A DNA stretch of 64,000 nt from Amoebidium appalachense (lineage: Eukaryota; Protista; Ichthyosporea), in the NCBI GenBank assembly GCA_963693365.1, contig CAVNZM010000002.1, forward strand, positions 5,534,259-5,598,258. The letters run 5' to 3'. Positions 6,401 to 9,400 of the stretch are shown piece by piece. The notes below the pieces were generated by a model. That model had not been told where the DNA came from and ran no database searches. It worked only from the letters and a program-made list of their open reading frames with translations. Within the stretch, counting starts at the first letter, position 1, and each line of letters begins with the position of its first letter. The translations under genes and the position numbers were made by a program.

Positions 6401-9400
6401 GGAGTGTCGTATATACGCGGGCTAAGGGGTCGAAACTCAGACGCAATTGATGACTTGGGTCCTCCCTGAGGATGGGCTCTGCTTATGACGCATACTGTGC
6501 ACATGGCTGATGTTGCATACTTGAATGTTTGCCTTTGCATGTGTCCTGCACCATGCTTCTCGTCGTGTATGCGTACTTTGTACCGTGTTCCGCATTCAAA
6601 CCCCCCCCCCCCCCCCCCCCCCCCGCCCCGGGGTGTGTCTCTTCCTCTCCTTTCCCCCCTTCCCTTCCTCCCCAGCTCCCCCTCTTTCACGTCTTTCTTA
6701 CCAATAACCCCCCCCCCCCCCCCCCCCCCCCCCCCCCCCCCAAGTGTGCACTACTGCTGCCAAGCCACACGTGAGCTTATCCTCAAGGACTTTGCGCTGG
6801 AGTCAGACGAGCAGAAGATGCGCCGTGCAGCACAGATGATGGCCCAGAGTTTGGCCGTAAATCTTGCACTGGTCACATGCAAGGACCCCCTCAGGATCAG
6901 TCTTACAAATCACCTTAGGTCGTCTCTGCAGCAGGCCGTGCCCCCAGGCCCGACTTCGGTATGGAAATTTCTTATTGAGCCCCAGCAACTTTGTAAGAAA
7001 TACAGACACGATGTGCATGTGGATTCATACATAGAAACACGCACAGACTGGCACACATGGTTTCGCACCTAAATGTTGGCAGGTAGCAGGGAACCTGGAT
7101 GATGATGGGTTCTGATCAAATGTCTCAATAATTGGTCCTATGTTTGCGCGTTTGCTGTCGTGTTTGACGTGGGCTTTGTTTTGTGGCTTTTGCATGCTTC
7201 TTGGTATTCCATTCCCTGCCTCCCCCCGTGACCTACTCATGTTCAAGTGAAACAGTATCTGAGTTGGGTTTCGTTAACGAGGGGAATAGGTCGAAACTCG
7301 GGTACTGTGGATGACGTGGGCCCCCCCTGAGGATGGGCTCTGCTTATTATGCATACTCTTTATGTATGGCTTGCATTCTGCATCGTGTTATCCGTTTGTT
7401 CTTGTGAACTTCGTACTTTTTGACGCATTCAAACCCCCCCCCCCCCCCCCCGCGCCGCCGTGGGGGCCAAGAGACTCCCACCATGGCCGCCACTGATACC
7501 TACCTCCACACGTACGCGTTTGCGTACACCCACACCCACACCCACACCCACACCCACACTCACACTCCAACACACACGTATACACACATGTACACATACA
7601 CACACACACCACACGTACACCCCCCACACACACACAGATGGAGCAGCAGAGTGCGCTTCTTGAGCAGGCGGTGCAGTTTGCGCTTGCCGACAACCTGGAG
7701 ACTGCCCTGCAGCACATTCACCGCATAGCATGCGACAAGGCGGTCCAGCAGATAGACGATGCTCTCTCACACGTACGTGTTCCCCCCCCCCCCACACACA
7801 CACACACACGCACACGCACACGCACACGCACACGCAGACGCACACATGCACACACATGCATACACGCAAGCACACAGACACACAAACACACACACTACCT
7901 TCCCTCATTATAGCAGTGTCAGGGTGTGTATGGTCAAGAGAACCGTTTGCTTCACCGTTACACTGGGTGATAGCATACACCGATGAAATTGACGCAGGCA
8001 CGTCTAACACACCATCGACAGATAAATACACCATAGCTCCATTGCATGAAATTTGTTAGAAGCAAAAGGGGGCCTTGTTGGGGACTAGCATGACGTATCT
8101 CTCGCCCTTACACACATCCCCCCCCCCCCCCCCCCCCCCCCCCCCCCCCCCCCCCCCCCCCACCACCACCACCACCACCACCACCACCACACACCACACA
8201 CAAACAGGCGTACGAGGCACGACGCAAGAACCGGGAGCTGTCCGGGCAGCCGTTCTATGACGTCACCCAGTTCACCCCCGGCCGCTACCCCACCCTCCTC
8301 CCTGAGCCACTGCGACCTCGCCCACCAACACTCGCACCCCAGCAGTTCCGGGTCTATGGTTGGTCCCCCCCCCCCCCCCCCTCCACACACACACACGCGC
8401 GCACTCACGCACTCACGCACTCACGCACAAACAACAAACAACCAACCAGGCATCCTCTCCCGGGTGTTCCGTTCCAGCTTTCCCTCTGACATTCCACCTC
8501 TCAACACTTTTCTCTCCTTTTTTGTTGTTGCTCTACTCACATACATGGCGCTGCAGAGGACTTCACCAAATACCTCAACAACTTCACCGCCAATGCCGCG
8601 CGACCCTCCGGCACACCACCCACGGCAAACCCTCCCCAGGTAACAACAAGATCCCCCCCCCCCCCCCCCCCCCCCCCCCCCACACACACACACACCCAAA
8701 AAAAAAAAAAGGGGGGGGGGGGGGGAAGAAAAAAAAAAAAAGGATGCAAGAAAATAGTTATTCCATAGGTGTGCACGCACATTTGCGCACATAAGGACAC
8801 ACATGCACACACGTGTCATGGTTGTATGCAGGCCCAACTGTCCACAACGATCGAGTCAAACGTATGGATGCTTCCACTGAACATTTATGCAACCGCTACA
8901 GAAAAACACACGCCACACTCTTTCCAACAAACATGGACACACGTGCCTGATTTTTGCGCAAAAACTATACCACACAGACGAAGGAGGAAGCAGCACCTAA
9001 GGAGGAGGCGATGGGTGCCCAGCCACCCCCACCACCACAGCCCCAGGTAGGGCCACCAGACAGCCGTGCACTCAGCAACACGGCACAGAGCCTGGATAAG
9101 CTGGCTATGCTCATGGTCGAAAGTACGTATTGCATGCATGGTCGACAGTACGTGTTGCATGCATTGTCGAAAGTATGTGTTGCATGCATGATCGAATGTA
9201 CGTGTTGCATGCATGGTCGGAAGTATGTGTTGCATGCATGATCGAATGTACGTGTTGCATGCATGATCGAAAGTACAAGTTGCAACACATGGTCGAAAGT
9301 ACATTTTGCGTGCATGGTCAGAGGTACTTTTTTTTTTTTTTTTTTTTTTTTTGGGTGCATAGTCAATTTTTGGCATTTTGAATACACATTCGAAGCAAGT

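Follow-up and report, generated by a model that had tools for sequence, protein, structure and literature searches.

A likely type-SGC hammerhead with a split CUGAGGA block in a retroelement-like repeat of an ichthyosporean

Background

The hammerhead can be divided into the blocks S, G and C, and 583 sequences of a type-SGC have been described in these terms (Eckert et al. 2023, PMC10085705). In the passages of that paper on which we draw, cleavage at the predicted site is shown for five sequences, assayed in cis, and four helices are validated by mutation and rescue; rates run from 0.007 to 0.19 per min, and the helix joining stems I and II is required. The same passages report that alignments of known hammerheads contain no insertion of more than 1-2 nt beside CUGANGA, and that the link from stem III to the interaction helix is hard to fit to the crystal structure. 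Hammerheads with additional helices are credited to Weinberg 2015 (PMC4509812) in the part of PMC13725137 used here.

Hammerheads are also carried by Penelope elements. As far as our excerpts of Cervera and de la Pena 2014 (PMC4209133) extend, these ribozymes have an extra nucleotide separating position 9 from 10.1, those of metazoans show low in vitro activity and many act as dimers, and processing of tandem transcripts to unit length has been proposed for them. In the Naiad/Chlamys group of Penelope-like elements, copies with truncated or inverted 5' ends occur and (C)n or (TA)n serve as targets, and in the sections of its description available to us the group is said to have no canonical hammerhead, with some cases of 'HHR_core' and 'HHR_half_core' (Craig et al. 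2021, PMC8557442).

Here we examine a repeat within a 64-kb window, a term that denotes the whole stretch of DNA analysed. A first-pass annotation had proposed for this repeat a hammerhead of an order found in none of types I, II and III and had taken its topology to be undescribed. The first of these claims stands, the blocks running S-G-C rather than in the circular C-G-S order of the three types, whereas the second does not: the order is that of type-SGC, already published with in vitro cleavage (PMC10085705), and the unusual part of the motif is the split block C proposed below.

Results

Eight copies of the repeat were identified within the window by BLAST and a covariance model; the model built from these eight, which retained only 15 of 35 pairs, recovers the same eight and no further copy in the window. 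Four copies belong to subfamily A (A7, starting at 7228; A27, at 27.1-27.5 kb on the minus strand; A61, at 61.2-61.6 kb; A62, at 62.3-62.5 kb), one copy constitutes subfamily B (B6, at 6.2-6.6 kb), and the remaining three are old and partial (c28, c30 and c36). The additional copies that had been placed at 27.2-27.3 kb (minus), 61.4-61.5 kb and 62.3-62.4 kb are all found there. The 3' end is common to the eight copies, their 5' ends are variable and C-rich tracts border them, with no partial tandems forming pseudo-LTRs among them in this window. The predicted cut site is crossed by five of the eight and is the start of none.

The complete motif is present in B6 (6328..6486, +) as the only member of subfamily B, with the 5' strand of helix Pb at 6328-6334, that of helix Pa at 6336-6338, hairpin H1 at 6340-6362, stem II at 6364-6368/6427-6431, the kink-turn at 6381-6384/6446-6453, the predicted cut after 6400, GAAA at 6432-6435 and the core heptamer at 6466-6472. 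It is also complete and intact in A27 (27219..27380, -), with a predicted cut after 27307, in an element that extends at least from 27492 to about 27138. These two, the only intact copies, are the candidates for activity. The focal copy A7 (7228..7434, +) has lost its 5' part up to a point 38 nt upstream of the predicted cut, and poly(C) follows it; missing the 5' partners of Pa and Pb as well as H1, it is likely to be weak or dead. A61 (61233..61608, +) carries an inverted 5' segment (61233-61305) ahead of its motif (61367-61528), which has a change of C15.2 to U and one change in the kink-turn strand; A62 (62294..62483, +) is truncated inside the motif, lacks the 5' strand of stem II and is predicted to be inactive. 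Among the old copies, c30 (30078..30222, -) has the core CUGAAGA without block S, c36 (36506..36618, +) has the core CUGAUGA only, and c28 (28420..28530, -) starts within the core heptamer.

A7 and B6 both lie, in sense orientation, inside introns of a CNOT1 gene (442-20007, +) of about 35 short exons, to which the transcript-derived protein P0002 maps exon by exon; the introns of this gene contain many (C)n and (CA)n tracts. In a quick tree of 17 CNOT1 proteins, P0002 groups with Ihof, which we take to be Ichthyophonus hoferi (78% identity over aligned columns), and then with Sphaeroforma arctica, both forks receiving 100 SH-aLRT, a grouping that makes the host an ichthyosporean, a unicellular relative of animals. 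Elsewhere in the window, a duplicated gene pair (33822-37840 and 59916-63056) retains 93% identity between 36670-37070 and 61692-62092 and 95% between 37599-37840 and 62814-63056, and both genes hold a copy of the repeat just upstream of the same exon, the old c36 in one and the young A61 in the other, which suggests that a preferred poly(C) site was hit twice. Tandem arrays at 46409-48656 and 49966-50884, with periods of 42-43 and 49, are made of related palindromic AT-centred hairpins; the unit of the former also contains CUGAUGA, with no GAAA partner seen. A 527-codon intron-free frame (51864-53447, +), in which a chromodomain (PF00385, E 1.2e-6) is the one family that Pfam detects, possibly derives from a mobile element.

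The focal copy illustrates the arrangement of the core, all of it on the plus strand. First in order are the 5' strand of stem II (GACCUA, 7230-7235, G10.1 being 7230), which pairs with 7287-7292, and the 5' strand of an outer, or 'interaction', helix (7236-7241), which pairs with 7315-7320 and keeps its pairing in B through one double and one single change. After the non-bulged strand of the kink-turn (7247-7250; GUGA, UUGA in B, with UGA the same in A27 and B6) comes block S (7252-7268), composed of a stem III strand (7252-7264), GUU with H17 at 7265 and the 3' strand of stem I (7266-7268), so that the predicted cut falls at 7265/7266. A linker hairpin between stems I and II (7270-7281) has a palindromic centre, of other sequence but still palindromic in B, and leads to block G (7287-7308), which holds the 3' strand of stem II (7287-7292), GAAA (7293-7296) and the second stem III strand, ending at 7308. 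The segment 7309-7320 supplies the bulged kink-turn strand GAUGA (7310-7314) and the 3' strand of the outer helix (7315-7320); it is followed at 7324-7333 by the 5' strand of stem I (7324-7326), in which a G-C pair becomes A-U in B, and the core CUGAGGA (7327-7333). At 7335-7347 stand the 3' strands of Pa (7335-7337) and Pb (7341-7347), whose partners, absent from A7, are present in B6, A27 and A61.

All three core strands recognised by the first-pass annotation are thus confirmed, and so are the changes between A and B that it described in stem III, stem I and the outer stem, and the variable N of CUGANGA, which is G, A (30187-30181, minus) or U (36507-36513). The cleavage site that it predicted, after 7265 (6400 in B), also appears to be right, and only the extent that it gave to the motif, 7236-7340, falls short, the 5' strand of stem II at 7230-7235 (6364-6368 in B) lying upstream. 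Stems I and III accompany GUU, GAAA and CUGAGGA, arranged as site-GAAA-CUGANGA, in five copies, and A7, A27, A61 and B6 all possess CUGANGA, GAAA and NUH with A15.1-U16.1 and G10.1-C11.1. Stems I, II and III adjoin the core and show one double change each, in a comparison of two subfamilies only; stem I has only 3 bp in subfamily A, and stem III has 9-13 bp with pair probabilities of 0.84-0.99.

A kink-turn is formed by a C-stem, a 3-nt bulge, tandem G-A/A-G pairs and an NC stem. Judged by this consensus, the pattern is clean in B (6446-6453 with 6381-6384), and in subfamily A the GA pairs are retained with an extra internal loop on the C-stem side. The tandem GA/GA motif is found where a kink-turn had been suggested, between stem III and the outer helix, and we take the fold there to be a putative kink-turn.

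Stem II had been drawn with the bases 3' of CUGAGGA, which is probably wrong. That pairing requires a 2-nt insertion, offers 2 Watson-Crick (WC) pairs in A and 3 in B, contains no double change and has one pair broken in four of five copies. The upstream strand provides 6 WC pairs in A and 5 in B, covaries (U-A in A, C-G in B) and is also the strand paired by the Rfam type I model RF00163, while the bases after CUGAGGA pair instead far upstream, in Pa and Pb, with H1 lying between Pa and G10.1. Stem II therefore probably uses the upstream strand and, as this strand is both better paired and covarying, block C (CUGAGGA) is likely to be interrupted between A9 and G10.1, where a long-range helix and a hairpin would intervene. 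In this reading, A9 would be connected to G10.1 through two helices and not through the backbone, the helix 7236-7241/7315-7320 would be the interaction helix of type-SGC, and the kink-turn would sit in the link between stem III and that helix; the equivalence to the type-SGC joining helix draws on passages of the text of PMC10085705 and on the covariation seen. With stem II placed upstream, it is the split block C that is unusual, not the block order. Literature searches found no prior report of a split block C, of the kink-turn or of a Naiad-type link, to whose split-core part Weinberg 2015 and the Eckert supplement may be relevant; the same three features do not figure in the passages used of PMC13725137, PMC10162972, PMC3088659, PMC6765202 and bioRxiv 2026.07.22.740005.

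A descriptor of the motif (site-GAAA-CUGANGA, stem I at least 3, stem III at least 4), its thresholds set after seeing the sequence, has five matches in the window, all within the repeat and representing only two independent subfamilies. In 2445 dinucleotide shuffles it gave 499 loose matches, 27 of them with stem III of at least 7, and a strict version (stem III at least 7 plus an upstream stem II of at least 5 WC pairs) had four matches in the 2445 shuffled windows. None of 114 control loci passed the strict version; two of these had been chosen for S and G blocks and 112, the loci of a viral scan, for GAAAC plus CUGANGA. Two loci from a metagenome pattern scan were rejected as chance matches from which the fold is absent.

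Between A27 and B6, none of the 15 core positions and none of the 8 kink-turn positions differ, compared with 12 of 82 other paired positions, 31 of 63 remaining ones and 16 of 29 downstream. None of the 43 modelled pairs is lost through these differences, four being preserved by double changes (one each in stem I, stem II, stem III and the outer helix), and when 12 changes were placed at random all pairs were kept in 75 of 200,000 trials. Across the alignment 164 of 164 cells pair, a value reached by 2 of 500 shuffles. The pair list behind these counts was drawn from the same sequences and excludes two outer pairs (columns 65:122 and 100:158) that are broken in one subfamily. Pa, Pb and H1 are invariant throughout the window, so that support for them comes from the Naiad sequences, compared by eye.

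The minimum-energy fold of B forms Pb, Pa, H1, the outer helix and stem III, leaving the 5' strand of stem II free. In the three complete copies the open scaffold lies 3.9-9.5 kcal/mol above the minimum, a cost to be set against about 18-19 kcal/mol from the stacking of stems I and II before loop costs. Folding z-scores are weak (-1.82 and -0.95), and the nested ensemble of A27 favours another fold, with probabilities of 0.18 for Pa, 0.32 for H1 and 0.07 for the outer helix. As had been expected, standard Rfam models miss the motif: there are no matches at gathering score in the window, and a search by E-value returned sub-threshold matches only. One of these, a CPEB3/HDV-like match of 13.6 bits (gathering 35) at 27556-27644 (-), about 250 nt upstream of the A27 hammerhead, was set aside with P1 and P2 poorly paired by eye; it probably reflects chance and could be a decayed 5' ribozyme.

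The Penelope-like context suggested for the repeat is likely, given its 5' truncation, the inverted 5' segment and the (C)n flanks, and these traits, with a microsatellite target, match those of Naiad/Chlamys. Pfam finds neither a reverse transcriptase (RT) nor a GIY-YIG domain in seven proteins of the window, and there is no long ORF upstream of the longest copy, A27; with no RT linked in the window, it is from such traits that we infer a Penelope-like retroelement of the Naiad/Chlamys type, of which the repeat would likely be the 3' end. In the consensus sequences of the supplement to PMC8557442 that were inspected by eye, the Naiads of Beroe, Acropora millepora, Pomphorhynchus and Octopus bimaculoides, named from the order of the headers, have the same layout in other letters. 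All four possess an upstream stem II of 6 WC pairs, a hairpin just before it, a GUA triplet and a helix whose start coincides with A9 or lies just beyond it, and in none of them could a contiguous stem II after CUGANGA be drawn. Their S-G linker has only 0-5 nt and no palindrome, and the position of the kink-turn is occupied by a kink-turn in Octopus and by a plain bulge in Acropora and Pomphorhynchus. Several nematode Naiads, also parsed by eye, show the ordinary hammerhead order, and the layout was not apparent in the last ~300 nt of the 18 Chlamys 3' ends viewed among about 49. A CAGGURA-type motif flanked by hairpins recurs in many Chlamys 3' ends of this supplement, at 150-250 nt from the end; it could represent a splice donor or else another conserved RNA element.

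Discussion

Our analyses make it fairly likely, on sequence evidence, that the repeat is the 3' end of a Naiad/Chlamys-type element and that its complete copies would fold within one molecule into a type-SGC hammerhead with a split CUGAGGA block and cut after GUU. The motif can be pictured as a type-SGC whose two ends have been joined, the outer helix being connected to stem III through a kink-turn that would turn the helix back, and which has been reopened at A9/G10.1, where Penelope hammerheads carry their extra nucleotide and where Pa and H1 would stack. Folding in cis would surround a normal hammerhead core with three helices that cross one another, and the cut would fall after GUU. Of the two ways in which CUGANGA had been thought to dock, pseudoknotted stems I and II are retained, and its supply in trans by a second copy is not required for drawing the fold. 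More weakly inferred, two motifs in tandem (pseudo-LTR) transcripts would excise unit-length RNA, and the cut is likely to be reversible because about 35 base pairs still bridge both products, so that it may help to circularise the RNA for reverse transcription. Easy re-ligation would explain why genomic copies read through the cut site, and the toleration of a complete sense copy, B6, in a CNOT1 intron argues against fast cutting.

That same intronic copy would suit a fold that is real and cuts poorly or not at all alone, being either a protein-bound 3' recognition element for the RT or endonuclease or a ribozyme in need of a kink-turn protein of the Snu13/L7Ae family. No copy begins at the cut site, the kink-turn of B has box C/D-like letters, and metazoan Penelope hammerheads are weakly active in vitro, according to our excerpts of PMC4209133. 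Yet the 15 core positions are unchanged beside flanks that differ at about half of their positions, N7 takes different letters in the older copies, as in a catalytic core, and the plain bulge in the Acropora and Pomphorhynchus Naiad consensi indicates that a kink-turn protein is not general. We regard this explanation as unlikely.

Cleavage only as a dimer, in which two molecules or tandem copies would pair via the palindromic linker and swap strands, relieving the strain of three crossing helices, is in our view distinctly improbable. The linker centre has stayed palindromic in both subfamilies despite its different letters, and many Penelope hammerheads act as dimers (PMC4209133, in the excerpts used). 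Stem III, however, is long and stable, unlike that of dimer-type hammerheads, the four parsed Naiads manage with a short linker that is not palindromic, and type-SGC was assayed in cis (PMC10085705, in the passages used).

The ordinary type-SGC model of the first-pass annotation, with an intact block C and stem II built from the bases just 3' of CUGAGGA, complies with the published block rule, could be used by the focal copy, and allows 4-6 pairs to be drawn once G-U pairs and the 2-nt insertion are admitted. Against it stand the few WC pairs, the lack of a double change and the broken pair noted above, the upstream pairing of the bases after CUGAGGA in the minimum-energy fold of B, and the four Naiads parsed, where it cannot be drawn; we give it very little credence. 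A repeat derived from a box C/D snoRNA, or otherwise non-catalytic, whose hammerhead letters are coincidental (UGAUGA and CUGA being boxes C' and D), is hardly credible despite the intronic sense copies and, in B, a CUGA 12 nt after UGAUGA, since it leaves GAAA, GUU and stems I-III unexplained, no Rfam model matches at gathering score in the window, the putative guide is not shared by A and B and shows covariation with internal partners, and the copies are 5'-truncated with poly(C) flanks and have no good upstream box C, the terminal boxes C and D and conserved guides of such RNAs not being found in the repeat.

The split type-SGC fold acting in cis can be carried further, although we hold the extended version only tentatively, as somewhat less probable than not. 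It would be a fast cis-acting, re-permuted type-SGC, opened inside its core, braced by a kink-turn and of pre-animal age: the missing ribozyme of Naiad, a self-cutting and self-ligating clamp that circularises the RNA of the element, in a Naiad-like lineage of a unicellular holozoan. If true, the split fold would break the stated rule that makes stem II contiguous with CUGANGA, so that hammerheads could be sought in a wider space; it would also provide a highly abundant clade of retroelements with the ribozyme that it was reported to lack, and extend type-SGC from metatranscriptomes to eukaryotic genomes. The ichthyosporean occurrence suggests that the design is older than animals or has moved sideways.

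Among known systems, the type I model RF00163 (Hammerhead_1) matches stem II-GAAA-stem III only (model positions 14-38), at 14.2 bits with a gathering score of 34, and CUGANGA cannot be aligned in the order of the model. The minimal and variant type I hammerheads of Penelope, as covered by our excerpts of PMC4209133, resemble the motif in their position near the element's 3' end, the 9/10.1 insertion and the palindromic loop; they differ in their circular order, an insertion of one nucleotide, a tiny helix III and a mostly dimer-dependent activity. Naiad/Chlamys elements, in the parts of PMC8557442 used, share 5' truncation, the inverted 5' segment and the lack of a canonical hammerhead, as well as, in many Chlamys, the (C)n target, so that the repeat combines a Naiad-like motif with a Chlamys-like target; it differs in its ichthyosporean host, absent from the metadata rows examined, and in having no RT or GIY-YIG ORF linked to it in the window.

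Closest of all are HRIMA-1 and its variants, the type-SGC, with which the repeat shares, on the passages of PMC10085705 used, the S, G, C order, the full core, pseudoknotted stems I and II whose far ends are connected by a fourth helix, and a link between stem III and that helix. The contiguous block C of type-SGC, with at most 1-2 nt from CUGANGA to stem II, is replaced in the repeat by a split one, the 5' strand of stem II lying upstream of block S and two helices standing at A9/G10.1; both strands pass from the outer helix to stem III via the kink-turn, and S and G are linked by a hairpin of about 18-22 nt in place of about 3 nt. Finally, whereas type-SGC motifs come almost entirely from metatranscriptomes alone, the motif described here is genomic and eukaryotic, and is known from its sequence.
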